From IMG/VR virus record IMGVR_UViG_3300032242_002717, positions 23,402 to 87,401 of that record: a stretch of 64,000 bases of DNA; one strand, 5' to 3'. The translations under genes and the position numbers were made by a program. The notes under the pieces were generated by a model. It worked only from the letters and a program-made list of their open reading frames with translations. It was not told the origin of the DNA and did not search any database. Positions 2 through 64,000 of this stretch are shown piece by piece; the first letter of the stretch is position 1, and every line of letters starts with the position of its first letter. This DNA is from a virus.

Positions 2-1453
2 CGCAGGGAAAGAACTCCGGTCCCAATTTATGTGCAAAGATCTGTTGAGAAGCATCTTAGCCGAATCTATGCGCAGGAAGTCGGAAGAGACGGTCCTGAT
101 AACATAAAACTCTGGTGGAAGAATGTCGATGGATGCGGATCAAACATCGATCATTGGATGGCGAACGAATTCGCTCCAATGTTCCTTGTTTTGGGGCAAC
201 TAGACTTAGTATTCGATCATCCTCAAGCTCCTGCTGGAGTAAAAATCAGAACTAAGGCCGATGAGAAGAAGTACGGGTTAGACAAGTGTGTAGTTTCTTA
301 CTACTTGCCTGAGAACGTGCTTTGGTGGAAGCTTTATCCAAATCGACAATATCAGGAAGTGGTTGTAAGGGAGCTTGTTGATCAAGATGCTACGATTCAG
401 CAGTCGTATGTAAGGCTGCAATTCAAGTGGAATTATCGACATTGGAGAGAAGACGGATGGACTTTGTATTCGGACGAGGGTCTTGAGCTTGATTCCGGCA
501 CATATTCCTATGGAAGACCTCCGATGGTTCGGATCTTCGATAGAAAGAAGCCAAGGTGCAAGAATGTTGGTCAAAGTAGATATGAGTCAATAGCTGAGCG
601 ACAAAGAGAAGTCTATAACTTAAGCTCAGAGTTGATTCTCGCAAATACTACGCAAGCTTTTCCCATGCTCCAGGGACCAGAAAAGTATTTGGCTGGAGAC
701 AATACGATTCCCGTTGGACCAGAACGTATACTTCCAATTTGGTCAAACAAAGATGGTAGCAACCACCACGGTTGGTCGGTTGTGGATTTTCCTAAAACTG
801 GCGTTGATTTCATACAGAAGACAATAGAAGACCAGAGAAGAGAGGCCGACCGCGAAGCGGCACTTTCTGGATCATCTGACAACGCAGTTTCTGCTGCTGC
901 AAAAGCTTTCGACTTTAGAGAAGGAAATGACTTACTGTCCAGCATTGCTGGAGTATTGGGTAAGGCAGAGCAAACAATATCGCAATATGCATTGTGGGTT
1001 CTCTCTAATGGAGAGCAGACCCCAATGGGAGATCAGGGTGAAGACGAAATCAATATCACCTACCCAAGAAAGTTTGATTTGCAGACAGCCGACCAAATTA
1101 TTCAGGTAATGAGCAGGCTTCAGCAAGTTGTCATGGGTGCTGGATGCCTTCCAAAAGCGGAAGCCGATTATCTAAAAACATCTGTAAGGCTTTCTCTTCC
1201 AGGTCGAACAGATGAAGAATACGAAGTGTTTAACAATGAGATAGACGAGTGGATTGACTACAAACACAATGTAATGCCAACAATCATTCTTCCGCCTGGA
1301 TCTCCAGGAGTAATTGGTCCAGGAGGCGGAGGCATTGCAGATAAAGGCGGAACCGATAAGCTTTTGGCACCTTCAGCACCTGCTGCACAAATACCAACAA
1401 GAAGTCTGGACATCGAAGACATTATTGATGGTCCTTCGGGTCCATCGATGTAA
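2..1453 (+). CDS. phage portal protein (5'-truncated by window edge)
   Basis: Frame is open to the window edge (RRERTPVPIYVQRSVEKHL...). Size, position before scaffold and capsid, and portal-like segments (HWREDGWTLY, YGRPPMVRIF, SAAAKAFDF, INITYPRKFD) support the call. Confidence 0.75.
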   Translation, partial: RRERTPVPIYVQRSVEKHLSRIYAQEVGRDGPDNIKLWWKNVDGCGSNIDHWMANEFAPMFLVLGQLDLVFDHPQAPAGVKIRTKADEKKYGLDKCVVSYYLPENVLWWKLYPNRQYQEVVVRELVDQDATIQQSYVRLQFKWNYRHWREDGWTLYSDEGLELDSGTYSYGRPPMVRIFDRKKPRCKNVGQSRYESIAERQREVYNLSSELILANTTQAFPMLQGPEKYLAGDNTIPVGPERILPIWSNKDGSNHHGWSVVDFPKTGVDFIQKTIEDQRREADREAALSGSSDNAVSAAAKAFDFREGNDLLSSIAGVLGKAEQTISQYALWVLSNGEQTPMGDQGEDEINITYPRKFDLQTADQIIQVMSRLQQVVMGAGCLPKAEADYLKTSVRLSLPGRTDEEYEVFNNEIDEWIDYKHNVMPTIILPPGSPGVIGPGGGGIADKGGTDKLLAPSAPAAQIPTRSLDIEDIIDGPSGPSM

Positions 1454-1565
1454 TGTTCCGTTTTGAGTTCACTGTCGATGGCGAGGTTCTGTTACCACGC
1501 CATTCCTTTTTCGTTATGTTTAACATGTGAGGATAGCCTTGACAACCGGCGAAACAAAGCAAAAT

Positions 1566-2354
1566 ATGCCAGAACAACCTTCTCAGACGGCAACCGCAAG
1601 TCAGTCCGCACCGACTTTTGAAACGAATACAAACACTGGAGGAACTCAGCTTAAAGCCGAGTTTGATCCGGTGCAAATTGCGAAGCTTGCTCAAGAAAAC
1701 AAGATGTTGCAGGAGCAAATCGCAAAATTCGAGTCCGAGAAGGCTGTTGCAATTGAGCGAGAACGCAAGTCTGCTCTTGAACAGATCGCTGCAAAAGATG
1801 GTGCCGCCAAGGCAATTGAAGAGCAGTTCCGAGTGTTCAAGGAAGAGCAAGAAAACAACAAAGTTAAGATGGAAGAGATTCTTCGCAAGGCTCAAGAAGA
1901 GTCTACTGCGAAGTGGAAAACCGAAGCTGAGCGTGCCGACAAGATTGAGCAAGTTTACCTTTCTGAAAAGAAGGAAAACGTCATCAATCGAGCGATTGAC
2001 GGGAAAGAGTTTGTTTCCGCTGCTGCCGAACGGCAGGTTCGCAAGCTTCTTGAAGACAGGTTTGATGTATCGCGCGATGATAAGGGTTCTGTGACCGTCA
2101 GAGACAGGGTCAATGGAAAATACGCATCAGACGTAATTCCAGAACTTCTTGCCACGGAAGATTTTGAACATTTCTTGAAGCCATCGACTCGCGGTGGTGC
2201 CGGTGTCTCCAACAATGGGGCCGGTAGAGAGCCTTCCAATTCGGCGTCTTACGCGAAAGATGATCCGCTGGCTTCCTTGTGGGAAGCAGCTAGAGAATCG
2301 ATGAATCGCACTGACAGCGCAATTGGCTTTGGTTTTAGGCCGAAGGCAAATTGA
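1566..2354 (+). CDS. capsid scaffolding protein
   Basis: Charged coiled-coil protein with C-terminal HFLKPSTRGGAG, between portal and MCP. ATG 1566 chosen over the ORF-track start 1527. Confidence 0.65.
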   Translation: MPEQPSQTATASQSAPTFETNTNTGGTQLKAEFDPVQIAKLAQENKMLQEQIAKFESEKAVAIERERKSALEQIAAKDGAAKAIEEQFRVFKEEQENNKVKMEEILRKAQEESTAKWKTEAERADKIEQVYLSEKKENVINRAIDGKEFVSAAAERQVRKLLEDRFDVSRDDKGSVTVRDRVNGKYASDVIPELLATEDFEHFLKPSTRGGAGVSNNGAGREPSNSASYAKDDPLASLWEAARESMNRTDSAIGFGFRPKAN

Positions 2355-52209: not shown

Positions 52210-52308
52210 CGGTCGGTTAAGGTTCAAAAAATTTTTTAGGGGGGGCGTTTGGTTTTTAGGTTTAATGCTATTAGGCTGACGGAACGACCGGCAGCCAGCT
52301 AATGTTGA

Positions 52309-52998
52309 CTAACTGGCAGCACACTCGATTTCGCTGCCTTTCAGCTTCGCGCCAGCCTGGAAAACCTGAATCGGCCTTCCCGCATCTGTGACAATCTGAG
52401 TTCTGGGGGTTTCATCTTCTGGGTAAGCCGCCCATCCGAACGTGCGTTCGCTTTCACCATGGCCAAGTTCCGCCTCTTCCCAAGACCTGTATTCGGAGAC
52501 CCGGAACCCCACATGACCTTTGGCGTTCACTGTCCATTCGGCATGAACACACTCTCGGTCCACCCCAAGCGGAGAGATGCCTCCGCCTGGGGTCATGGTG
52601 GCAGTCTTGTCTAACCACATTTTTTTAACCATCGAATCATAGTCGAGATAATGACATGACCCCTTTGGTGCCACAAATCGGCATAGGTCTTTCGCCATGT
52701 CGATGCAGGTAAATGCGTGCTTCTGAGGAACTACTATGTATACTCCACCCTTCTCGTCAACGCAAATCCCATCGAAAGACTCGGCGGCTTCCCTAGCGAA
52801 TCGCCGGTAATTCTGCCTGTGCCTCCATGTTTGGTGTTCGTCCTCAGGAATCAGGGGAATCATGGCCATTTGACCGATTAACACGACCGATTGATTCTCT
52901 AGGACAACCTTCCAGATTGGCGTCTCGTCTCTTGCGAAGTCCCCAAAGATTGGGGACTTGCCAGACTTTGGAGTGTAGATAAAGAGCTTGGTGATCAC
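52309..52998 (-). CDS. hypothetical protein
   Basis: AAAGGA SD before GTG 52998. Confidence 0.6.
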   Translation of the reverse strand: MITKLFIYTPKSGKSPIFGDFARDETPIWKVVLENQSVVLIGQMAMIPLIPEDEHQTWRHRQNYRRFAREAAESFDGICVDEKGGVYIVVPQKHAFTCIDMAKDLCRFVAPKGSCHYLDYDSMVKKMWLDKTATMTPGGGISPLGVDRECVHAEWTVNAKGHVGFRVSEYRSWEEAELGHGESERTFGWAAYPEDETPRTQIVTDAGRPIQVFQAGAKLKGSEIECAAS

Positions 52999-53137
52999 AG
53001 GAGTGTCCTTTGTGAAAACAGTTCTGATTGTGACGTAATAAGTTCGCAGGCAGTACCGCAGCAATGACATCGATTTCAAAAAATCGTTCAGGGGGGGGCG
53101 GGATAGGAAGATAGTTATTTAGCCAAGGGGCATGCGA

Positions 53138-53562
53138 GGGGTTGCACTCGCAGCCCCTATGGCAGCGATCACAGACTTGGGGATGTAATGCGTCCCCGGT
53201 CGAAATCCTCGGGTGAACCCGACCGATAGTTGTACACGAAGGTCACACCATCTGGTGTGACGTAAATCTTGCGACCGTCACGGTCCTTTGCCCCGGTGGC
53301 GCGGCAATTAATCGTCAGCGTACCCTTAAACGCATTGCCGTTTCTTACCGTGTTATACGCAAACTCCGAGTGTGCGTAGAGGGGAACAATTCCCGGCACT
53401 TGTACTCGCACGGGGCCGCCTGAGTTCGTGCTAAAGGTTATTGCGGACATTCCTTCACCAGCGGCATTGATTTCGAGGATTTTGCGAGCCTCATCCTTCA
53501 GTTCTTCCAGAGTCATCGTCTTGCTCCTGCGTTCGGGGTTATGGGGCTGCACTCGCAGCCCC
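53138..53562. repeat. two 20-bp hairpin direct repeats GGGG(C/T)TGC-ACTC-GCAGCCCC flanking one gene
   Basis: Copies at 53138-53157 and 53543-53562, one mismatch. Confidence 0.8.
53169..53516 (-). CDS. hypothetical protein
   Basis: AGGAG SD before ATG 53516. Confidence 0.65.
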   Translation of the reverse strand: MTLEELKDEARKILEINAAGEGMSAITFSTNSGGPVRVQVPGIVPLYAHSEFAYNTVRNGNAFKGTLTINCRATGAKDRDGRKIYVTPDGVTFVYNYRSGSPEDFDRGRITSPSL

Positions 53563-53576
53563 AAGAGGGTGGTCAA

Positions 53577-54308
53577 TTAGTCTGTTTGCTCACCATTGTC
53601 TTCCGGCTCTTGATCCAACAAATCTTTTTGGCAAGGCTCGCAATAGCAAGGGGAGTCAATGCTTACTCCGCACCCTTCGCACTCGCAATCTGATCCCGTC
53701 TCGGAGTCTTTTGACTCGTCAAGCTCGTCCAGAGCCGAGCTTGCGCGATCCATGTCTTCGCAACGAACAAAAAACATATGTAGCAAGAATTCTCCGTCAT
53801 AGTCCATTTCCTGGTACTCTCTGTATGGAACACCATGCGATTGCAAAATTTCCTGAATGCTCTCGATGTCATCATACTCGTGAGTGTCTCCAGCTTGACC
53901 GCAAGTATCGCTGGAGATTGCGGCGATGTTCTGCCACCCCGGCTTGGATTCGGGCCAAGGCATGTCGTCATCCTCGTCACGATGACAGAATTCCAGATCC
54001 ACCTTGCGTGCCAAGGCGTGAAGCTCCCGAGGCAGGGCTTTTCTTCGTAGACACCCGACATAGACTTTGTGGTCGTCGATGTCGAACAAGTCGATTGAGA
54101 GGTAGTCGCTGTCGCAATCGTCAACCTCCCAATCTCCGACGACAATGTCAGACTCCACGAATCCAAGAGATTTAAGGAGAGATTTAAGGATTAGTGTAGC
54201 TTGGTCGAGAGCGTCATTGTCGCTTTCGGCCTCAAATTCTTGGTCGCGGTCCAACGACATGTCTCTGGGTTTGATGGACGATGTGGCGGACAGGTGATAT
54301 TCACTCAT
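53577..54308 (-). CDS. highly acidic protein with C-terminal Zn finger
   Basis: Very D/E-rich; CEGC...CEPC; AAGGA SD fused to motif copy 3. Confidence 0.65.
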   Translation of the reverse strand: MSEYHLSATSSIKPRDMSLDRDQEFEAESDNDALDQATLILKSLLKSLGFVESDIVVGDWEVDDCDSDYLSIDLFDIDDHKVYVGCLRRKALPRELHALARKVDLEFCHRDEDDDMPWPESKPGWQNIAAISSDTCGQAGDTHEYDDIESIQEILQSHGVPYREYQEMDYDGEFLLHMFFVRCEDMDRASSALDELDESKDSETGSDCECEGCGVSIDSPCYCEPCQKDLLDQEPEDNGEQTD

Positions 54309-54382
54309 GGCTGCGTTCCTTCTCAAAAAATCGTTCAGGGGGGGGACTGAGGTATTCTATCTCTACCTCGTGCGAGTGATGA

Positions 54383-54784
54383 TTAGTTGGTGGGCTTGAA
54401 AAGATCGGCTGCGTAAGCCGCAACCCAATCCGCTTCATAAGCCTTTCGCTCGTCAGGACTCATAGCCACGATTCTCTCACATTCCGCTCGGCTGGCTCGC
54501 AATTTAGCGGCCTGATCGTGCGTCAAGACGTAGTTGTTGACGTGACCAACGCCCAGATGCGAGTCGAGCAGATCGGACAGCACCCAACCCAGTCGATCTC
54601 GATCATCTTGAGTTATTCTTGCATCGCACTGACTGATCGCAGTCCAGTCTGACGCCGCGCCCACGCCACCTGGCCAGGTTTGGTCATCCGAGTACAAGGC
54701 GAATCCCGCCTGGCCATCGTGCGGCCCTTGAACCAAAATCTCGCCATTGACGGTCACAACATAGCCAACGTGAAAATATGACAT
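54383..54784 (-). CDS. hypothetical protein
   Basis: GGAG SD. Confidence 0.6.
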   Translation of the reverse strand: MSYFHVGYVVTVNGEILVQGPHDGQAGFALYSDDQTWPGGVGAASDWTAISQCDARITQDDRDRLGWVLSDLLDSHLGVGHVNNYVLTHDQAAKLRASRAECERIVAMSPDERKAYEADWVAAYAADLFKPTN

Positions 54785-54852
54785 TTGAGCGACTCCAGCA
54801 ATTTGAGGTAAAGCGAGGCCAGAACGAGTGGCCTCGCGTGAAGCCAGGGGAA

Positions 54853-55266
54853 TCAGGATACTAACGTCAATTTGATATTGCGGTTCGCTGCCGGATCGAT
54901 TCGAAATAGGTGGCCGTCGATGTTGATCTGATCGCCCAAGTCGGCCTTGACTAGCAGTCCCTGGCGTTCGGACTCAAGCAGGCACGCCTGAGTGCCTGCG
55001 CCGTCAGATGCGAGGATAATTGGGTTTGGCGTCACCCAAGCCCATGGGCCTGGCACAAGCTCGCCACCGCATACCTTGCGGTGAGCAAATCCTGGCGGAA
55101 CGTATCCGAAAGAGAACCCGGAGATGCATCGTTCGCCAACCATCAGCACAACCTGCTTGACTGGATCTTGCACGTCCCAGTAGTTGCGAGCGATGTAGTT
55201 TCCATCCAGGTCAAAAGACTTGGTGATTGAGATCTTATCAAGGTCTATGTCGATTGGTGCGTTCAT
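54853..55266 (-). CDS. hypothetical protein
   Basis: AGGAG SD before ATG 55266; the longer 330-aa ORF call is judged spurious. Confidence 0.6.
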   Translation of the reverse strand: MNAPIDIDLDKISITKSFDLDGNYIARNYWDVQDPVKQVVLMVGERCISGFSFGYVPPGFAHRKVCGGELVPGPWAWVTPNPIILASDGAGTQACLLESERQGLLVKADLGDQINIDGHLFRIDPAANRNIKLTLVS

Positions 55267-55391
55267 TACGAACTCCTGACGTGAGGTCTCAAAAAATCGT
55301 CCAGGGGGGGCGATGCATAATATTGGGTTATAGATGGTCTCCACATGGAGACCATCTGATCGTGGGTTAGCAAGAGCTTCCTGTGGAGAAA

Positions 55392-56186
55392 TCAGACGGT
55401 CACTCGACCGCCGATGCCTTCCTCGCAAGCTCGGTCGTAGAGCTGCTTGACTCTGGCGGGTTTCATTGGCCCACCGTCTCGGCAAGAGACACCAAGGGTT
55501 TCTTGCAGGATCTCGGCAATCTCGCGGTAGGACGATCCCTCCGCACGCTTCTCTCGGATGACAAGCATCACGTCCCGGTTCTTGGCCAGAGCCTTGGCGG
55601 TGCGGGCCTTGGATGCCGCCTCGCGGCCCTCCAGCATCTCTTCCTGAGTAAACCTCTTCGATCCCGGACGAGACGCGCCAAGCCTGCGTCCCTTGCTCTT
55701 GGCGACACGCAGGGCATTTCTCGTGCGCTCGGAAATCAATTTTCCCTCGAACTCGGCACACAGGGCGAGCATATGCAAGCAAAACTCGCCAGACGGGCCA
55801 ACCGGGACTTCGGGGAAATCCAGGAAGAGAACATTGACGTTCCACTCACGGACCTGATCCCGGATCTCACGGAACAGGCCAGCGTTACGCGCCAATCGGT
55901 CGAGTTTGGCTACCACCACGGTAGCACCAGTTCGCCTGGCATAGCTCAACGCTTGGCGGAGTTGTTCGCGGTCTTGTTTGCCGGTCTCATAGTCCACAAA
56001 CTCGTCACGGATGATCTCGCCACCGTCGATTCGGCCAATGTACTCCTGAATCAGCCTCCGTTGTGCCTCAAGACCCAAGCCGGACCTGGCTTGGCGCAGG
56101 GTCGAGACGCGAACGTAGGGGACGTACCGCTTTGCTGGCGGAACGTGAGCAAAAGAAGATCGGGAAGGGGAGGTCAGTGCAGACAT
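55392..56186 (-). CDS. serine recombinase (resolvase/invertase family)
   Basis: YVRVST catalytic motif, SGLGLEAQ, AKLDRLARN, AEFE...ISERT, C-terminal HTH GSSYREIAEIL. Confidence 0.92.
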   Translation of the reverse strand: MSALTSPSRSSFAHVPPAKRYVPYVRVSTLRQARSGLGLEAQRRLIQEYIGRIDGGEIIRDEFVDYETGKQDREQLRQALSYARRTGATVVVAKLDRLARNAGLFREIRDQVREWNVNVLFLDFPEVPVGPSGEFCLHMLALCAEFEGKLISERTRNALRVAKSKGRRLGASRPGSKRFTQEEMLEGREAASKARTAKALAKNRDVMLVIREKRAEGSSYREIAEILQETLGVSCRDGGPMKPARVKQLYDRACEEGIGGRVTV

Positions 56187-56248
56187 TTGAAAATCCTCTC
56201 GGTTTTGAAAAAGCTTAGTCTTGGTCAGAAGAACTTAGCCTTATTGGT

Positions 56249-56293
56249 TTCGACTTATATAATGTAACACAGTACATACCGAATGTCAATAGT
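56249..56293 (-). promoter_or_regulatory. sigma70-type promoter P1 (45-bp exact repeat of 61437-61481)
   Basis: Minus strand TTGACA-ttcggtatgtactgtgt-TACATT; upstream of the serine recombinase. Confidence 0.75.
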
Positions 56294-56648
56294 CTATCTT
56301 GGGTTTTTTTGTGTGGTCCAGGGAACCAGCGATCATGCTATTGACAGCGTACCTGACCATTTCGCTAACCGACTTAAAATTAAGCGGCTGAAACGCTTCG
56401 TACCATGCTGTAAGCTCGGATTCGTCGATTTTCATATTGAACCTTGCCTTTGGAACAATATTGGCGGTCCTGGCTATTTTTTGCCGTTCCTGACCAGACT
56501 TGACCTGATTGACTTCGCTCGTAATCACGAGACGCTCGTATTCTGCTTTGGCTTTCCTTAATTCGACCTCATCTATTCTCTTGCCGAGTTCGATTTTAGT
56601 CAAAACATTAGGAACGAATGAGGGGCCTTGTTTTTTATGGCTTTTCAT
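56286..56648 (-). CDS. ribbon-helix-helix (CopG/Arc-like) DNA-binding protein
   Basis: RFNMKID (ribbon) ESELTAWYEAF...SVSEMVRYAV (two helices). Confidence 0.65.
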   Translation of the reverse strand: MKSHKKQGPSFVPNVLTKIELGKRIDEVELRKAKAEYERLVITSEVNQVKSGQERQKIARTANIVPKARFNMKIDESELTAWYEAFQPLNFKSVSEMVRYAVNSMIAGSLDHTKKPKIDY

Positions 56649-56688
56649 TGGAATCTTCCTTGCAAACAGGGTTGAGTAAGTACTATGA

Positions 56689-56717
56689 AGCATACCGATA
56701 AAGTCGCAAACAGTCAA
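56689..56717 (-). promoter_or_regulatory. sigma70-type promoter of the RHH gene, directly behind motif copy 5
   Basis: TTGACT-17 nt-TATGCT on the minus strand. Confidence 0.55.
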
Positions 56718-56762
56718 TTCAAAAAATCGTCTAGGGGGGGGTCTTACAATAAAAATTGATGG

Positions 56763-57056
56763 TTACAGTCCAAGCGATTCCCGGAGACTTCTCTGCTCTC
56801 GCCACTGGGTTGCAAGCTTGCTCCTGGATTCTTCAAGCGCGGTGAGACATACGATCAAAGCATTGTGAACGGCAAGAATTTCCGAAGTCGGTTGCTTCGT
56901 ACGCATTTTGCTTACGTTCACTGTCATCAGGTATATCTTGACGCACATATCATCGACCTGACCTTCTTGATACTCTATCTCTGTCAACAACTTGTATGGA
57001 ATCAGGCTTGAACCGCTTGCTTTTTTTGCCGCAATCATCATCTTTTCTGTGATCAT
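56763..57056 (-). CDS. hypothetical helical protein
   Basis: Single ORF between motif copies 5 and 6. Confidence 0.6.
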   Translation of the reverse strand: MITEKMMIAAKKASGSSLIPYKLLTEIEYQEGQVDDMCVKIYLMTVNVSKMRTKQPTSEILAVHNALIVCLTALEESRSKLATQWREQRSLRESLGL

Positions 57057-57117
57057 TTGATCGTCCCTTGCAGATCTGGTAAGTGTGGGTCAATTCAAAA
57101 AATCGTTTCGGGGGAGG

Positions 57118-57381
57118 TCATTGGTTGATCGTGGCTATGTATATTTCTGAAAGCGAGATGTGACCTTGCTTCCAAAGTGCTTCGATATGCTTGCACGGAT
57201 CTGACTTGAGTTCTTCCCTGCGAAACGCGAAGTCTTCACAGTCGCATATCCAACCACAGAACTGAGAATCATCCTTGTCGATTCGGTGAGACCTTGAAGA
57301 GTAAGACAAGACATATCTTCCAGATATAAAATCAAGTCGATATAGCTTGCCCTTGATTTTCATAGTGACTGGATATTTCAT
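57118..57381 (-). CDS. SWIM zinc-finger protein
   Basis: WICDCEDFAFR...CKHI (CxC...CxH). Confidence 0.75.
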   Translation of the reverse strand: MKYPVTMKIKGKLYRLDFISGRYVLSYSSRSHRIDKDDSQFCGWICDCEDFAFRREELKSDPCKHIEALWKQGHISLSEIYIATINQ

Positions 57382-57638
57382 TTCTCAATCCAAGAACTTG
57401 GGATACAGTTCGAATCATAGTCTTTTGGAAGCAAACTCTTTACCTGCTCAAGAGCGCAGCCGAAATCGACTCCGGTTGCCATCATTGCCGAAACTGCTCC
57501 TACTATGATTCCCTTGCCGTACGCAGTGTTAATTTCCCAGTCTTCTTGTTTTGTGTTCTTGGTTGACAATGAATACAGGGCATCTTTCAAGATTATCGGC
57601 CTGGATATCTTGCTTTTTTTGACAGGGGATTTCTTCAT
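57378..57638 (-). CDS. hypothetical protein
   Basis: GAGGA SD before ATG 57638. Confidence 0.6.
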   Translation of the reverse strand: MKKSPVKKSKISRPIILKDALYSLSTKNTKQEDWEINTAYGKGIIVGAVSAMMATGVDFGCALEQVKSLLPKDYDSNCIPSSWIEK

Positions 57639-57739
57639 GGTTTCCTCTTTGTCAATGAAATGGATTTCAGCGAACCGCAACAAGACTCAAAAAATCGTTC
57701 AGGGGGGATAGATAGTTCAGTTCGACTTGATTCAACCGA

Positions 57740-58363
57740 TCAATCGGCAAACCTGTCTAGGCTTTCCGAGATCGAACCAATTCGCATGAGTGCGATTCGG
57801 CAAGATTCTTTGCAAGCCTTGACCAAGGCCCTATCGGACGCGCTTTCAGGAAATCCTGATGACGACGATCTTCTCAAGTCACAGAAACAAATCGGAGGCA
57901 GATAGCCAAGAAGCATGTAGGAGAGGCAGATTTCATGGCTACAATCCATCCCTACGCAAGTAAGGGCTAAAGCGTAGGTCTGATCTTTCAGGACCACCAG
58001 AGTGCAATTTGGAAGCTCTAGGACTCTCTTGCCTTTCGGGTCAAAATCACTGGGCAGCGGATAGAGGCAGTTTACGATAGGTTCAATCGAGTCCATATTT
58101 TCTTGGATTGTGTCTACGCAAACATTCCTTGCCGACTCAAGGTATTCATCGTCGTCAATGTCGATGAGGCAGTCTACCCTGCCGTCAAGAGAGACTCCAT
58201 ATTCTTGCAAGAACTCTTTCATTTCCTCGATGGAGTAGTCGGCAAAATCGGGAATAACGATATCCCAAGATTCTCCATACCCTTTCGAGAAGTCAAAACC
58301 AATCGGGTTGAAATAGATTGTATCGGCGCACAGTTGGTCGATCTTGCGAACGTCAATCGGCAT
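57740..58363 (-). CDS. acidic hypothetical protein
   Basis: GAGGA SD; LALT..GMD.S.EIC..Y..LGYLPP motif. Confidence 0.65.
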   Translation of the reverse strand: MPIDVRKIDQLCADTIYFNPIGFDFSKGYGESWDIVIPDFADYSIEEMKEFLQEYGVSLDGRVDCLIDIDDDEYLESARNVCVDTIQENMDSIEPIVNCLYPLPSDFDPKGKRVLELPNCTLVVLKDQTYALALTCVGMDCSHEICLSYMLLGYLPPICFCDLRRSSSSGFPESASDRALVKACKESCRIALMRIGSISESLDRFAD

Positions 58364-58439
58364 CTTTGTATCCTCTTGTTTGCTTCTCAAAAAATCGTTC
58401 AGGGGGGATAATCGGCAGTTTTTGCCACAGGATAAAAGC

Positions 58440-58700
58440 TCAAACTAAATCGCTACCTTTGAGGTAGAGTTTTTGCTTATTGACTATGACGTAGTGGCTT
58501 GCCGCATTGCTAAAACATACCGCATACACTCGATAGGCGACATTTCTTCCGGGGAGCCTTACCATTCTATCGGTAGCGATTTTGCTACCGTATCCGCTGG
58601 CAGACTGCCCCGGCAAGAGTTGAAGCATACCGAATCTTTTGACTGGGCTTGAGATCACCTCGAATGGTTGCTCAAGGTATTTGATTTCAGACAATTTCAT
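58440..58700 (-). CDS. hypothetical phage protein (SGYGSKI motif)
   Basis: GGAG SD, ATGA overlap. Confidence 0.6.
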   Translation of the reverse strand: MKLSEIKYLEQPFEVISSPVKRFGMLQLLPGQSASGYGSKIATDRMVRLPGRNVAYRVYAVCFSNAASHYVIVNKQKLYLKGSDLV

Positions 58701-59161
58701 GCTCCCTTGTTGATGACGAACTTCGGGTCCATTAAGTGGCATACTGTATCCACGTTAAGCGGGTTGACTCCGGTTCTGGGGAATTTCCTATCGACTCCAA
58801 AGTACCGGCATTTCCAGGGTTGCTCCCTACGGAAACCAGTAGATTCGTCGCCGTGTACACGCAGATTGTCGCAATCAGAGGGCACTCCATTGTTTCCGGT
58901 GAAATCGCAAGTCGGGTTATCGGAATCGATATCGTAGTCGCCTAAGTCTGACTCTGGAATATGGATGAAGTGACCGTATTCGGAGTCGCTAAATTCGTCG
59001 ATTGCATCGGACGGAGAACCGGCTTCAACCGCATAGAAGTTGGACTCGAAACCCATTGAAATCTCAATCAGCCAAGTCTTACCATGCCAACCAGAAGGAT
59101 TGACGACATCGGCTTCAATTGGCTTTCCGTAGAACTCGCCTCTTGCAATGACCTTGCTCAT
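58697..59161 (-). CDS. acidic hypothetical protein
   Basis: GAGG SD formed by the end of motif copy 9. Confidence 0.65.
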   Translation of the reverse strand: MSKVIARGEFYGKPIEADVVNPSGWHGKTWLIEISMGFESNFYAVEAGSPSDAIDEFSDSEYGHFIHIPESDLGDYDIDSDNPTCDFTGNNGVPSDCDNLRVHGDESTGFRREQPWKCRYFGVDRKFPRTGVNPLNVDTVCHLMDPKFVINKGA

Positions 59162-59228
59162 TTTTGCCTCAAAAAAACTTTCAGGGGAGGGTGGAAGGAT
59201 TTCTTCGAAACATTCAATGTCCGCGCCA

Positions 59229-60056
59229 TCAGAATGGTATAAGACCTTGCGCGTCGAGTTCTTCGTGAATCAACTCTGCAATGGTGTAAGGGTGATCGGA
59301 ACAAAGTTTTGATATCTCGACTAGCGAATGTTCAGATAGGTCTTGAAACCCGACAATACCTAAGCTTGAAGGGGACTGGTATTCAACTTCAGAGTCGATA
59401 TCTACATCCTCTACTTCGTCATAATACTTGTCACGATACCTTGCCCAGCTGCCACTGGTGAAAGATCGGTATTCGGTCAAGCTTGAGGATTTCTTTGGAC
59501 TCACTACCGGCTTGCTAGGCAAGCAAGAAGTGTTAGATAGCCACAATTCTTCGTGATTGACTCCAAGCGACTTGTTTGCCGTCAAGATCTTGCCGTCCGA
59601 AGCGCGGACGATTACTACCTTGCTATGGCCAATCATCGATTCTAGGTACTCTTCCAGCGTTCCATCGTCAAACCATTCTGGATGCATGGCAAGCATCGGC
59701 TCTACGATACCCACGGCAAGGTGATAGGTATCGCTCTTGCCCTTCCAGCGAACCGGCATAGAGTCAATAATCCCGTTATGGATAACGCAATACTCGCCAT
59801 CCATGATAACGAACGGATGACAATTCTCGATGCTTGTTTCGCCGTGAGTTGTGATTCTCGCATGAAATACCCAAGCGTCACTACCGGCCTTCTTGACCGC
59901 GCCTAGAGCCTTCTTATTGTCCATGCTCTTTTCTACGCGAAGCCCGTTCTTGCCGAGTACCACAAGTCCCCAACCGTGAGGATTACGCGCTACCGCTTCA
60001 GAGATCATATTGTCAGAGTAGGAAGCTTTCGCGGGCCTATTTACGATAACACACAT
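59229..60056 (-). CDS. class II (Ntn) glutamine amidotransferase
   Basis: N-terminal MC, NPHGWG, FHARITTHG, NCHPF, HNGII, SDT. Confidence 0.85.
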   Translation of the reverse strand: MCVIVNRPAKASYSDNMISEAVARNPHGWGLVVLGKNGLRVEKSMDNKKALGAVKKAGSDAWVFHARITTHGETSIENCHPFVIMDGEYCVIHNGIIDSMPVRWKGKSDTYHLAVGIVEPMLAMHPEWFDDGTLEEYLESMIGHSKVVIVRASDGKILTANKSLGVNHEELWLSNTSCLPSKPVVSPKKSSSLTEYRSFTSGSWARYRDKYYDEVEDVDIDSEVEYQSPSSLGIVGFQDLSEHSLVEISKLCSDHPYTIAELIHEELDAQGLIPF

Positions 60057-60152
60057 TGGCAATCTCGATTCTTTGGTGAGTATCGCTGGCAATGCAAAAT
60101 GGTTGCCAGCGTAATTGAAAGCAAAAGTCTAACAGAACCGCAATCCTAGAAA

Positions 60153-60575
60153 TCAACCGCCCGGCATGGATATGTCTTCATAGCACGATACTTTCCCACC
60201 CTCAAAAACATCTACAAAGATAGACGGCATGCAAGAGACACCGTAAATGTAAAGTTGAAATGGGAATTGAGACTCTCCGTTCTTGTTGGCAATCATCTCG
60301 CGTACTTGTTGCTTTCCGGTAGTACACACATGGCCACGATATCCTATTTCAATGGTGGTGAAGCTAAGGTCAAAAACATCCTCGATAGTGGCGAATCGAC
60401 TCAAGAACCGACATTGTTCGACCGTACCAAAAACATCGTGGCGAAACTCAGAAACCGTAGAGCTAATGTCACGAATTTTCTCGACCATTGAACTTGCCTC
60501 TTGTCTAGTGTGAAAAGAAAAGAACCGAACTAATCTCGACTTAGATACTGTACCATAATACATACCGTAAGTCAA
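60153..60575 (-). CDS. hypothetical protein
   Basis: Fills the operon gap; start uncertain. Confidence 0.45.
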   Translation of the reverse strand: MTYGMYYGTVSKSRLVRFFSFHTRQEASSMVEKIRDISSTVSEFRHDVFGTVEQCRFLSRFATIEDVFDLSFTTIEIGYRGHVCTTGKQQVREMIANKNGESQFPFQLYIYGVSCMPSIFVDVFEGGKVSCYEDISMPGG

Positions 60576-60591
60576 GATATTTCTTTGTTTT

Positions 60592-60969
60592 TTAGCAACC
60601 GTGAATCATTCCATCGTCGCCGATATAGAGATTAAATTCGCCGAACTTCTTACTTTCAATCGTTAACTCTTTGCCAACCATGGTTGGCCAATCGCCATCC
60701 CAGAATCCCGCGCCGTGTCCGTTCCTTGTTAGCCAGAAATCGTGTCCGATCATTCCTTCAACTGAACCCTCGAAGCGGAATGGATCTACCGATTCAATCA
60801 CGATCTTGTTTTTATCAAGAAAAGACTTGCAATCTCTTGTCATATTTTCGAGCGTGCCTTTGTGAATCGACTCTTTGGTGTATTTTTCGTCAAGAGGATT
60901 GCCGTAATCATCGGTTGATGACCAAAGCGCGGTTCGAACGTAAGACTCAAAAACAGATTCTAAATTCAT
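60592..60969 (-). CDS. conserved phage early protein (GHDFWLTRNGHGAGFWD motif)
   Basis: GGAG SD; ALWSS and GHDFWLTRNGHGAGFWD, a motif I recognise from phage early regions; function unknown. Confidence 0.7.
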   Translation of the reverse strand: MNLESVFESYVRTALWSSTDDYGNPLDEKYTKESIHKGTLENMTRDCKSFLDKNKIVIESVDPFRFEGSVEGMIGHDFWLTRNGHGAGFWDGDWPTMVGKELTIESKKFGEFNLYIGDDGMIHGC

Positions 60970-61017
60970 GGCTATCTCCGATTCTTGAAACTAAAGGTGA
61001 ATGGCTATCGGGCTAGA

Positions 61018-61416
61018 TTATTTAATCTGGCCCGGCAACCCGGAAATGATTCTTTCGAGATTGATTGCTTGTTCGTGATCGGAAGGGTATCCAAAAGAAA
61101 CAAGATCGAACTCAGATTCGATTTTGTTGTACTGTCTGCTTTCCCAAGTACTGAACATACCTGCCTTGATATCGGCCTTGAGAAGCTCTACGTCACCATT
61201 GTAAAGCTCTTGAAGAAGGCCCATATCCCGTATCGCCGAAACGAACAAGATCGGAACCATTACCACTTGGCCATGAAGCCTCATATGATCCAATTCGTCT
61301 TCAGTAAGGGTATCAAGATAGGGGGTCAAAGCACGGTAAATTTCTCGCTTGGGATGCTCGCTATCCCCACGGTAAAGAAAAGTCGAGCATGGAACATGAA
61401 TCATTGGAATCTCCAT
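61018..61416 (-). CDS. hypothetical protein (start 61416 or 61404)
   Basis: Directly downstream of promoter P2. Confidence 0.55.
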   Translation of the reverse strand: MEIPMIHVPCSTFLYRGDSEHPKREIYRALTPYLDTLTEDELDHMRLHGQVVMVPILFVSAIRDMGLLQELYNGDVELLKADIKAGMFSTWESRQYNKIESEFDLVSFGYPSDHEQAINLERIISGLPGQIK

Positions 61417-61436
61417 TGTTTGGGCCGGTTGCTTCG

Positions 61437-61481
61437 TTCGACTTATATAATGTAACACAGTACATACCGAATGTCAATAGT
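61437..61481 (-). promoter_or_regulatory. sigma70-type promoter P2 (identical to P1)
   Basis: 45/45 identity with 56249-56293. Confidence 0.75.
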
Positions 61482-61494
61482 TTTTTGACTGTTT

Positions 61495-61803
61495 TTATTC
61501 GATTTCCTTTCCGGTTTCCGGGTCCACTTCATAAAAGTCTTTAATCCACTCCATGGCGGACTCAATATCCTCAAAATGACACCAATCGGTTGCATCAAGA
61601 TATCCAGGTGCGCTCATGCGTGCAATGATTCCGGCATGAACCTTTATTTCCTGATCTTCGTCAGGCTTTCCGCACACAAATTGACGAAGATCTTCGAGGG
61701 TAGCTTCTGGCCCTACGCAATCGACGGGAACCACTTCCGTTCCGTCAGAAGTCTCTACTAGGTAGCAACCCTTGTCACAATATTCTGGAATCATGAATGG
61801 CAT
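61495..61803 (-). CDS. acidic phage protein (ARMSAPGYLDATDW motif)
   Basis: 102 aa, D/E-rich. Confidence 0.65.
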   Translation of the reverse strand: MPFMIPEYCDKGCYLVETSDGTEVVPVDCVGPEATLEDLRQFVCGKPDEDQEIKVHAGIIARMSAPGYLDATDWCHFEDIESAMEWIKDFYEVDPETGKEIE

Positions 61804-61861
61804 TTAAGGAAATCCCCTTGAAAATGGGCAGCAAAGTAAGTCGGTTGGAAATGAACTAGGT

Positions 61862-62125
61862 TCAGTCTTGATAGAACACTTCATAAGAATCATCACGATA
61901 GTCCAAACTATCGTGGTAGACCGCATAGAACTGTTTGGGCTTGTATAGCTTGACGAACTCACTCCAAGCCATAACTCCCGACTTGCGCTTCTGGCTAACA
62001 TAAGTCTTTTTTGCGGACTCTTTGAATTCTTTGAGTTTTGGCCAGAACTCAATTTGTCTTCCGAATGGAAGGGTATTCCAATTGCTTGGAATACCGTCGA
62101 TCTTAATTCTTGTCTTGCTCTTCAT
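61862..62125 (-). CDS. hypothetical protein
   Basis: AAGGGG SD. Confidence 0.6.
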   Translation of the reverse strand: MKSKTRIKIDGIPSNWNTLPFGRQIEFWPKLKEFKESAKKTYVSQKRKSGVMAWSEFVKLYKPKQFYAVYHDSLDYRDDSYEVFYQD

Positions 62126-62136
62126 CGGATTTCCCC

Positions 62137-62544
62137 TTAGTTGTGATCGTCTTGATCTTTGGTCAAGGACTCAATTTTCGGATAATAATTTCCGTTTGAT
62201 GAATAGTAATCAACCCAGAACTGAGTGACTTCATTAGGATTGTCGGTATGCTGTTCGGCAATCCATTCTTCGCCGTACTCCGTGAGGCCGTTCATTAGAA
62301 ACGAACCGATCTTTCGACCGCTTGGAAGCGTTTCCGCCTCAAGGCAATACTCGTGGTTGCCACAATGGCAAGGCGAGTCAGATTCCCCACAATCAATCAT
62401 GAACTTCGGGAAATCTTCGGAATCGTAAGTCGATTGGTCGTACTGATTTTCAGGTACCATACGGGGTTCTTTTTTGCAGATATCGGCGATGATCGCTTCA
62501 CCACACTTGTTGCAATAGAGATCGGCTTGATAGATATAGGGCAT
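62137..62544 (-). CDS. acidic Cys-containing phage protein
   Basis: YIYQADLYC..C, ESDSPCHC; first gene after promoter P3. Confidence 0.65.
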   Translation of the reverse strand: MPYIYQADLYCNKCGEAIIADICKKEPRMVPENQYDQSTYDSEDFPKFMIDCGESDSPCHCGNHEYCLEAETLPSGRKIGSFLMNGLTEYGEEWIAEQHTDNPNEVTQFWVDYYSSNGNYYPKIESLTKDQDDHN

Positions 62545-62589
62545 GAAAATCTCAGGGTTATTGTTTGGTTGCCGCATCGCTGCCACAGG

Positions 62590-62624
62590 ATATAATGTAT
62601 CACGGTACTTACCGATAGTCAATA
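62590..62624 (-). promoter_or_regulatory. sigma70-type promoter P3 (diverged copy of P1/P2)
   Basis: TTGACT-atcggtaagtaccgtga-TACATT; 30/35 identical to the P1 core. Confidence 0.7.
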
Positions 62625-62708
62625 ACTTATTGAAAAGATTTTGGCAACAAGATCGGGTTTCGGTATGATTAGTATGTACTAAACATCTATTTTTGAGGAA
62701 TACAAGCA

Positions 62709-63395
62709 ATGTCCGCGCCGAAAAAAATCGGTCTGACCAATACCGCGAAAAACATTCTAAGGTCACTTCCAGAGAAGGAAGTTGACTTTGTTCTTTGCTA
62801 CGCTTGCAACCCCGGCCCTTCCGGCGCAATCAAGGCAGCTGCCGAGATATCGCCAGAGGGCTTGACTAAGAGCGAATTGCGTCAAGTGGCGGCGGAAATG
62901 CTATCCAACCCGGAAGTCAAGAAGGCGATAGATAAGCTTGCCAAGTGTTTCACGACCAATCCAGGAGAAGTGCTATCGGCAATTTCCGATCAAGCTTTCC
63001 CTGATCTTGAAGCGGTTCAAGCTTGCTATATTGACCACGGAAACGGCCTGAGAACTTGGGACTGGAAGAAGGCTTTCGAGAATGGTGCAGCTGCATTCGT
63101 GAGAAAAGTGACACCCACAAAAAATGGTGATGCAGTAGAATTCCATGATCGCATACGCGCGCTGGAAACGCTTGGGAAATACCACGGATTATGGGATGAT
63201 AAACCGAACGTACAGGTCAATAATTTTGACTTGTCTAAACTTAGTGAGGACCAATTAAGGGCAATGGCAGCTGGAAAGCCTGTAAGCGACTCTTCAGCTG
63301 CCACTGAACAACAAACGATTGATGTTAGCTACCGTACTTTGTGGGAACCTGAAATCAATCATGATCCATCAGAATCTTCTTCAGATTCAGAATGA
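62709..63395 (+). CDS. terS: terminase small subunit
   Basis: FVLCY....AIKAA, MLSNPEVKKAI, VEFHDRIRALETLGKYHGLW, DLSKLSEDQL; GAGG SD. Confidence 0.8.
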   Translation: MSAPKKIGLTNTAKNILRSLPEKEVDFVLCYACNPGPSGAIKAAAEISPEGLTKSELRQVAAEMLSNPEVKKAIDKLAKCFTTNPGEVLSAISDQAFPDLEAVQACYIDHGNGLRTWDWKKAFENGAAAFVRKVTPTKNGDAVEFHDRIRALETLGKYHGLWDDKPNVQVNNFDLSKLSEDQLRAMAAGKPVSDSSAATEQQTIDVSYRTLWEPEINHDPSESSSDSE

Positions 63396-63705
63396 TAGGC
63401 TTCAAAATTGAGGCGGGAACCGCGCCTGAATCTCTCATTCCCTCAATGAAATCTTTAGCTTCGGACTCTGAGTTAAAGTGATATGCCTTCTTTGTTTCCC
63501 CACTCTTGACCCAAAAAACTAGGGTATTGTCAAGCTTGCGAAACATCACGCAAAAGTGTGGCGTTTCGGGAATTTCATAATCGTTGATTACTGGACTTCT
63601 TTTGAACGATTGCCCCATAAATCGATAGTCCGGCAAGTCCGTTTGCTCAAGAATCACAACCGGCAAGCCAGAATCGGAAATCTTCTCAATCACGGTATCC
63701 TCCAT
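63355..63705 (-). CDS. hypothetical protein
   Basis: Convergent on terS; extended -10 (TGcTATAAT, 63740-63732) and motif copy 10 lie upstream. Confidence 0.55.
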   Translation of the reverse strand: MEDTVIEKISDSGLPVVILEQTDLPDYRFMGQSFKRSPVINDYEIPETPHFCVMFRKLDNTLVFWVKSGETKKAYHFNSESEAKDFIEGMRDSGAVPASILKPIILNLKKILMDHD

Positions 63706-63918
63706 TCCAAAACTATGTTTTTCCTAATTTGATTATAGCAAGTAAATCTCCATGAAGTTGTTGAATACTTCTCAAAAAATCTTTGGGGGGGGTGTTACCC
63801 ATATCTAGCTTAACACTGGCGAAACCGCCACGGTTTGCAATTTGCCTATCTTGAAAAAATCGAAAAAGCGAAAAAAGTGTACTTTTGAACAGTAAAAAGT
63901 GTATGTCTGTTCACCAGA

Positions 63919-64000
63919 GGACCGGACGTCCGGAGGACCGTCTAGGACCGGACGTCCGGAGGACCGTCTAGGACCGGACGTCCGGAGGACCGTCTAGGAC
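63919..64000. repeat. 26-bp perfect tandem repeat GGACCGGACGTCCGGAGGACCGTCTA (3 full copies plus a partial one, running off the window)
   Basis: Units at 63919-63944, 63945-63970, 63971-63996; each contains the palindrome CCGGACGTCCGG. Confidence 0.95.

Follow-up and report, generated by a model that had tools for sequence, protein, structure and literature searches.

The phage and its accessory-gene array

The record IMGVR_UViG_3300032242_002717 of the IMG/VR collection (87,401 bases) is the genome of an uncultured temperate tailed phage. The window considered here is the last 64 kb of this record (64,000 nucleotides, bases 23402-87401), and it includes a leftward array of about 28 small genes spread over 12 kb. 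The gaps between these genes hold ten copies of a short motif, read on the coding strand as CCCCCC(CC)TGAACGATTTTTTGA; its likeliest role is that of a phage-specific signal for the start or control of transcription in this accessory-gene array. Elsewhere the phage encodes a tyrosine integrase with two Cro/CI-type helix-turn-helix (HTH) proteins near it, a Rad52-like protein, PrimPol, a helicase, the DnaN clamp, a methylase, dUTPase and ThyX, as well as a portal and a large terminase with inteins. Two sigma factors are also encoded; both resemble group 1-3 sigmas, and one of them has regions 2 and 4.

Comparison with Pfam and PHROGs left almost every protein of the array without an assigned function. 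The assignments obtained are a glutamine amidotransferase (GATase)-like protein, a small serine resolvase and, on the opposite strand, a TerS-like protein (Table 1). The gene named RHH in a previous reading of this stretch, made from the sequence alone (the sequence-only reading), gave no family match. Both ends of the record consist of one tandem repeat in the same orientation, found at window positions 63918-64000 and at record bases 1-62. At the right end a 26-nt unit runs off the contig, at the left end a 24-nt unit starts from base 1, and the common core is GGACCGGACGTCCGGAGGACCG. The assembly probably broke inside one repeat array and the genome would be essentially complete in spite of the completeness estimate of 72%, because the two contig ends carry the same tandem repeat. 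The TGTG motif at -16 of the canonical promoters described below and the strong ribosome-binding sites suggest a Firmicute-like host.

Copies of the motif in the window

The query TCAAAAAATCGTTCAGGGGGG was matched to the whole window with ≤3 mismatches; matches were scored on the + strand, and the motif word is read on the (-) strand, where the local genes are encoded. Exactly ten matches were obtained, all in a single orientation, compared with none in 100 shuffles of the sequence. All ten are intergenic and are spread over 11.5 kb. Four of them are identical across 21 nt, and the C-run is 6-8 nucleotides long, being broken up in copies 6 and 9. Nine copies follow each other at 376-1430 nt, with 4.6 kb to copy 10. 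The other 23 kb of the record are empty, so that the whole 87,401 bases hold no copy beyond the ten. With start codons picked by the ribosome-binding site, the motif ends 7-79 nt before the next start codon and begins 2-82 nt past the preceding stop codon.

These results bear out most of what the sequence-only reading had described: ten co-oriented copies, each upstream of a minus-strand gene, no copy in the first 52 kb, nine copies 0.4-1.4 kb apart, and a C-run of 6-8 that is interrupted in copies 6 and 9, which was seen again on re-reading of the copies. The placing of copy 6 right after the upstream stop codon (a gap of 2 nt), the sigma-70-like elements that follow copies 5 and 10 and the apparent supply of a ribosome-binding site by the 3' end of copy 9 were likewise found again. 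One count had to be corrected, as four copies rather than five end close to a start codon, at 7, 14, 22 and 23 nt (about 6-22 nt in that reading).

In another assembly, possibly of the same sample, the C-run of copy 3 is longer by one base, a weak indication that its length varies. In the same part of the array (window 53528-54309), contigs of two runs hold a gene about 90% identical to 54308-53577 with different flanks. On one side the similarity breaks off precisely at the start codon, a sign of gene-sized mosaicism at gene boundaries.

Conservation of the motif in a related phage

Searches with the GATase, TerS and capsid proteins returned a single related record, IMGVR_UViG_3300032236_001100 (84.8 kb, designated L015), and the motif comparison rests on these two genomes. 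In a public phage collection no DNA match was found, the only protein similarity being a portal 25% identical in a Rhizobium phage. The relative is collinear over its full length, with proteins 25-87% identical and about 40-60% identical in the motif array. Its array begins at a tandem-repeat contig end and has the same layout, namely the first gene, the TerS gene on the opposite strand, the GATase gene and the resolvase gene in the middle. It carries 12 degenerate copies of the motif, all on the coding strand of the array, none elsewhere and none on the other strand. A profile built from the 22 copies of both phages, as the sequence-only reading had proposed, was run against both strands of the two genomes (173 kb, E≤10) and returned only those 22; no inverted or antisense copy was present in the 173 kb. 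Scans for the exact word yielded 0 matches in the viral, 1 in the genome and 3 in the metagenome collections, which were single, located in unrelated coding DNA and without similarity to this phage. A looser word scan of viral contigs gave lone chance matches and one unrelated repeat spaced at 160 nt. The repeat is thus real, non-random and conserved.

Alignment of the 22 copies gives a C-block with one invariant C and two neighbouring C conserved above 90%, then 7 bases, then GATTTTT(T), a G and 1-2 purines, at constant spacing. The 7-base middle is unconstrained in the relative and TGAAC-like in this phage. The functional core is therefore bipartite and of fixed geometry, with 3-4 C that are invariant or nearly so in its C-block.

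The motif is kept in both phages before four orthologs, which are the first array gene and genes 58363-57740, 57638-57378 and 56648-56286. Different genes lie upstream of them in the two phages, and the remaining intergenic DNA cannot be aligned. Since the motif is retained before orthologs despite changed neighbours and diverged flanks, it is assigned to the 5' side of the gene that follows, where it is under selection, which argues against a 3' element of the upstream gene. The distance from the motif to the start codon is 23, 48 and 70 nt in this phage as against about 46, 32 and 51 nt in the relative. This lack of conservation argues against an element that acts at the translation level or is tied to the ribosome-binding site.

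The relative's array opens with 3-4 tandem copies of the motif, 34 nt apart. Another of its copies, L015:10107, begins 2-3 nt after the end of a GC hairpin of 7 bp plus T-run and is not followed by a sigma-70 promoter. Weaker hairpins lie upstream of copies 3, 4 and 8 in this phage.

These data bear on the view that the motif is a single-stranded element (CCCCCC...GAUUUUUUGA) in the 5' leaders of a polycistronic transcript. It could act as a processing site which cuts the message into units of 1-2 genes, or as a pyrimidine-rich site on which a stability or translation factor lands. Such an RNA element, which the sequence-only reading had also put forward, is improbable. It agrees with the constant location on the sense strand, with a C-block predicted to be mostly unpaired (0.74 vs 0.54 in flanks), and with the fact that the 3' purines are placed as a ribosome-binding site in three copies, where the 3' end of the motif is probably transcribed. 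Against it stand the start-codon distance of 7-79 nt, which is unlike between orthologs, and the lack of any structure, pairing partner or antisense copy in the genome. This role gives no easy account of three to four tandem copies within a single leader, and the terminator immediately upstream of L015:10107 would leave no transcript for processing.

Canonical promoters and tests of structure

Both arrays contain a second class of promoters, of clearly canonical sigma-70 type, with an A-rich upstream stretch, TTGACA, a 17-nt spacer, TGTG at -16, TACATT and then ATAAGTCGA. Their spacer holds the palindrome CGGTA(A/C)GTACCG, and the operator that they carry, CGGTAnGTACCG, is different from the C/T motif. 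The four full-form promoters of the window are all found in gaps without the motif; in the relative, all four high-scoring canonical promoters lie within a motif-free stretch at 1.5-4.4 kb (Table 1). To judge from their sequence, these are probably repressor-controlled early promoters, one of which would drive the resolvase gene.

The motif could alternatively be a set of asymmetric docking sites for a phage DNA-binding regulator that works like the L5-type stoperators. A monomeric two-domain protein on the C-block and T-run would then block the polymerase or neighbouring promoters in an orientation-dependent manner, and the accessory array would be silenced or timed. This is the main alternative, possible although unlikely, and it preserves the regulatory-protein half of a suggestion made in the sequence-only reading; the packaging half, with the motif as a TerS or pac site, was dropped, as the copies are dispersed over 11.5 kb. 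Docking is consistent with a motif that is asymmetric, bipartite, with a free middle, intergenic and oriented with transcription. Sigma-70-like promoters adjoin or follow copies 5 and 10, L015:6868 and the tandem set. The phage is also temperate, having an integrase and two HTH proteins, and monomeric repressors that bind asymmetric sites through two domains are documented (PMC9283540). However, the motif is confined to 12 kb while stoperators are genome-wide, and stoperators are the operator of the early promoter, whereas the canonical promoters here carry a different, palindromic one. Docking would also leave most units without a promoter, including those behind terminator-like hairpins, and no candidate binder was found.

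Structure prediction gave no hairpin involving the motif, and direct reading of the 21-mer revealed no dyad symmetry. The statement of the sequence-only reading that the motif is neither a hairpin terminator nor a site with an attC-like hairpin is upheld by these results and by the mostly unpaired C-block. An intrinsic terminator was rejected, there being no GC-rich hairpin directly before the T-run. The motif could still be a hairpin-less, factor-dependent terminator or attenuator. The transcript would then be released at the T-run through a factor bound to the C-rich RNA just behind it, and downstream units would be reached through antitermination only. A C-block that lies 8 bases before a run of 5-7 T does resemble a 3' arm plus U-tract, few sigma-70 promoters occur in the motif-bearing half of the array, and tandem copies could shield the array from read-through over the terminal repeat. 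However, apart from the missing hairpin, the motif is linked to the downstream and not to the upstream gene, the G plus purines conserved after the T-run are needless for terminators, and a canonical terminator already precedes L015:10107. This explanation is accordingly quite improbable. A boxA-like antitermination site was discarded because of a weak match and because ten copies are implausible.

Several known promoter types were also tried. When the motif's 3' TTGAnn was taken as a sigma-70 -35 element, the -10 score was 2.45 against a background of 2.44, and 0 of the 22 copies scored ≥5. The aligned copies contain no conserved -35 block 17 bp upstream of GATTTT. Inspection of the flanking sequences removed a promoter of the extracytoplasmic function (ECF) type with TGAAC as -35 and CGT as -10. 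A sigma-I promoter was rejected likewise by direct reading, the A-tract after the C-run and CGWA at 13-15 nt being missing in the 22 copies. A sigma-32-like -10 of the form CCCCAT was rejected because the bases after the C-block are unconstrained in the relative. The resemblance to IHF and to hix/gix half-sites breaks down through mismatches at key positions.

Table 1. Motif copies, promoters and other features of the array and of the record; positions refer to the window unless the record or the relative (L015) is named
Feature	Position	Strand	Sequence	Setting	Relative
Copy 10	63772..63792	(-)	CCCCCCCCAAAGATTTTTTGA	first element after terminal tandem repeat; ~30 nt upstream of extended -10 promoter (TGcTATAAT) of first array gene 63693-63355	orthologous position has 3-4 tandem copies
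Copy 9	59169..59189	(-)	CTCCCCTGAAAGTTTTTTTGA; most degenerate of the ten	between GATase-like gene and gene 59161-58697; 3' GAGG 5 nt before ATG	same junction without motif
Copy 8	58387..58407	(-)	exact consensus	23 nt before gene 58363-57740	ortholog L015 5220-5936 preceded by copy L015:5164
Copy 7	57687..57707	(-)	exact consensus	48 nt before gene 57638-57378; related strain lacks the gene and has the motif	ortholog preceded by L015:7370
Copy 6	57095..57115	(-)	TCCCCCGAAACGATTTTTTGA	2 nt past upstream stop; 38 nt before gene 57056-56763	
Copy 5	56719..56739	(-)	CCCCCCTAGACGATTTTTTGA	followed at once by sigma-70-like TTGACT-N17-TATGCT and gene 56648-56286	ortholog preceded by L015:7713
Copy 4	55289..55309	(-)	CCCCCCTGGACGATTTTTTGA	past resolvase gene and two hairpins; 22 nt before gene 55266-54853	
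Copy 3	54323..54343	(-)	exact consensus	14 nt before gene 54308-53577; terminator-like hairpin upstream	
Copy 2	53076..53096	(-)	exact consensus	77 nt before gene 52998-52309	
Copy 1	52224..52244	(-)	CCCCCCTAAAAAATTTTTTGA	last copy; heads six-gene unit 52155-50041, which closes at strong terminator near 49.9 kb	
Canonical promoters, full form	62622-62594, 61477-61449, 60575-60547, 56289-56261	(-)		all in gaps without motif	L015 2461-2489, 4353-4381
Canonical promoters, variants					L015 1533, 2865
Sigma-70-like site	56717			directly after copy 5; without palindrome	
TerS-like gene (Terminase_2)	62709-63395	(+)		opposite strand to the array	
Class-II GATase-like gene	59229-60056	(-)		array	
Serine resolvase/invertase gene	55392-56186	(-)		mid-array	L015 9317-10051
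Amidoligase-like gene	record bases 260-1573	(-)			
16-bp palindrome GTCTCC-N4-GGAGAC	55337, 45393, 28943, 12927; record bases 5005, 15276, 15820		mostly GTCTCCGCGCGGAGAC	often just before ribosome-binding site	8 copies

Motif as a proposed phage-specific promoter class

The prediction from these sequence comparisons is that the motif represents a phage-specific class of promoters, used by the host polymerase together with a phage factor; we hold it with roughly even confidence. It is favoured because the motif is linked to the downstream gene and the canonical promoters lie mostly in motif-free gaps, and also because one copy is closely preceded by a terminator and the relative's array begins with tandem copies. 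Tandem promoters occur in phage early regions. Ten short transcription units of 1-6 genes in the accessory array would each have their 5' end marked by a copy of the motif. GATTTT could serve as a -10-like element with A at -11 and T at -7, and transcription might start at the G after the T-run or a few bases past it. The array would then contain two promoter classes, the operator-controlled sigma-70-type (TTGACA-N17-TGTGtTACATT) and the C/T-motif promoters, which would be on once the factor is made.

The host RNA polymerase, steered by a phage-encoded specificity factor, is taken as the reader of the motif because the genome is closed and encodes no recognisable RNA polymerase. Candidates for the specificity factor are the two phage-encoded sigma factors and any early protein that escaped recognition. 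No polymerase family of Pfam or PHROG was found in the approximately 80 open reading frames (ORFs) scanned, some small ORFs being outside the scan. The DFDGD polymerase motif is absent from every frame, and among ORFs of ≥60 aa no DxDxD is common to orthologs of the two phages. In Thermus phage P23-45 a cryptic polymerase is fused to the tape measure (PMC10770324); a two-barrel polymerase of that type, fused to the tape measure or free, was dropped for the same lack of a DxDxD conserved between orthologs.

The sequence-only reading had held that the motif is not a simple promoter. For a -35 role this was confirmed by the test described above. It does not apply to a compact promoter starting at or after the T-run, since the argument rested on the short distances to the start codon, which exclude a -35 element and not a compact promoter.

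Several observations weigh against a promoter. The motif matches no known sigma geometry, and the C-block would fall at about -23 to -18. There is no -10 at 16-18 nt past TTGA and no conserved -35 upstream. If GATTTT is the -10, the leaders of copy 9 and L015:5970 would be only about 2-8 nt long and would drop GAGG or GGGAG, the apparent ribosome-binding site at these two copies. A start at the G after the T-run is typical of a single-subunit polymerase, and none is encoded. In the two genomes compared, no phage protein could be tied to the motif.

If the promoter reading is true, the accessory array is partly run from a compact promoter without the -35/-10 geometry in a phage without its own polymerase. 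This would point to an unrecognised phage factor that redirects the host RNA polymerase. The motif would also be a simple sequence tag by which the variable genes of these phages, which probably act in host interaction, could be recognised in metagenomes. An array of co-oriented repeats with the look of gene cassettes would be better explained as gene-expression punctuation.

Gain, loss and movement of array genes

The preferred reading of the sequence-only analysis was that the motif copies are integron-like junctions, that is, crossover sites of a system of cassette acquisition or shuffling, possibly served by the conserved serine resolvase. The resolvase gene is indeed conserved inside both arrays (50% identity, mid-array in both phages and beside the tyrosine integrase), and the two phages differ in which units bounded by the motif they have and in the order of these units. 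Inverted repeats were not observed. The sites of serine and tyrosine recombinases are dyad-symmetric or fold into hairpins, with res, hix and gix made of two inverted half-sites around a central dinucleotide. The motif, however, has no dyad symmetry, no hairpin and no inverted copies.

Alignment with the relative did not confine gene gain, loss or changes of order to the motif, as such changes are also seen where the array is free of it. The relative lacks counterparts of genes 62125-61862 and 60488-60153, which no motif accompanies, and gene 60969-60592, also of the motif-free part, is located elsewhere in the relative's array. Gene 57381-57118 (a weak SWIM zinc-finger match) overlaps the stop codon of different upstream genes, so that the breakpoint is its start codon. 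The resolvase gene stands under its own operator-controlled promoter like an ordinary phage gene.

In a related strain from the same study, represented by assembled contigs, window positions 57401-57671 are missing and one 86-aa gene is lost. Copy 7 is retained there and is now directly before gene 57381-57118. The deletion joints are 15 nt past copy 7 and 19 nt before the next ATG, so the only deletion joint seen lies off the motif and the event was not motif-to-motif. Cassette crossover sites are consequently very unlikely. The narrower proposal, in which the motif is the crossover site of the mid-array serine resolvase and the array an integron-like platform with a non-palindromic site, is hardly probable at all.

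The gains, losses and moves observed need no site-specific system; promoter-plus-gene units (morons) and recombination at short repeats are sufficient. As a by-product of a promoter function, units made of the repeated motif and a downstream gene might be gained, lost and reshuffled by ordinary recombination, as considered below for PeSLs.

Other features of the two genomes

The TerS-like gene is about 64 kb from the gene of the intein-bearing large terminase, and the relative is alike in this respect. The relative's contig end at the same map position has a different tandem repeat (a 19-nt unit, five times) next to TerS. The terminal tandem repeat is a candidate pac site or origin.

The class-II GATase-like gene and the amidoligase-like gene are about 4 kb apart on the same strand, across the presumed circle junction. 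Pairing of an amidotransferase with an amidoligase is found in other phages.

A 16-bp palindrome, GTCTCC-N4-GGAGAC, is scattered in both phages (Table 1). A T-run after some of the copies gives them a terminator-like appearance. The palindrome is identical in the two phages, whose proteins are 25-87% identical.

Comparison with known systems

The start-associated sequences (SAS) of cluster K mycobacteriophages reportedly contain the ribosome-binding site and lie at a constant, short distance of a few bases from the start codon. The motif differs from this in its distance of 7-79 nt, which changes between orthologs, and resembles the SAS in being a short conserved sense-strand word before a subset of genes (PMC3203893). 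The sigma-I promoters of Bacilli and Clostridia have the form ACCCCC--AA-N15-CGAA (PMC4711584, PMC10575876). These Firmicutes promoters share with the motif a C-run as upstream promoter element; unlike them, the motif has no A-tract or CGWA at the required spacing, and the phage sigmas look like those of groups 1-3. The attC sites of integrons are imperfect palindromes that fold into a hairpin on one strand; the motif forms no such hairpin, and gene changes are not limited to its sites.

Stoperators of cluster A mycobacteriophages are 13-14 bp long, occur in both genome arms and are bound by the L5 gp71-type repressor (PMC9283540, PMC6550527). The motif is similarly asymmetric, oriented with transcription, intergenic and multi-copy in a temperate phage. 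Stoperators are the operator of the early promoter, whereas the motif is located in one 12-kb array, where the canonical promoters have another, palindromic operator.

In T4-type phages, PeSLs (promoter-early stem-loops) combine a sigma-70 early promoter with a stem-loop, and recombination between such short repeated regulatory words has been proposed (PMC2839356, PMC4122927). As with PeSLs, a repeated regulatory word flanks the ORFan genes of a hyperplastic region, and relatives differ by the gain, loss and movement of word-plus-gene units. Unlike PeSLs, the motif has neither the sigma-70 consensus nor a consistent stem-loop, and no motif-to-motif recombination was observed.

Promoters of single-subunit or two-barrel polymerases are contiguous words of about 20 bp that end at the start site and occur in many near-identical co-oriented copies. 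To judge from its sequence, the motif would agree with this pattern, but no cognate polymerase gene was recognised among the approximately 80 ORFs scanned. In Bacillus thuringiensis phage 0305phi8-36 a phage-specific promoter candidate of 21 bp occurs 14 times, mixed with other promoters (PMC2147016). Phages 0305phi8-36 and T7 each have a polymerase gene, candidate or proven, whereas the present phage has two sigma factors and no recognised polymerase. In sequence, the C-run plus T-run motif is unrelated to the 0305phi8-36 and T7-type promoters. A comparable promoter-like array without an identified reader is already in print (PMC2147016), and it is the present word itself that differs. In its architecture the motif resembles the promoters of 0305phi8-36, the SPO1 host-takeover module and the 23-bp promoters of T7 type: a word of about 20 bp in 10-14 near-identical co-oriented copies, placed in short non-coding gaps before small genes, intermixed with another promoter class and absent elsewhere in the genome.

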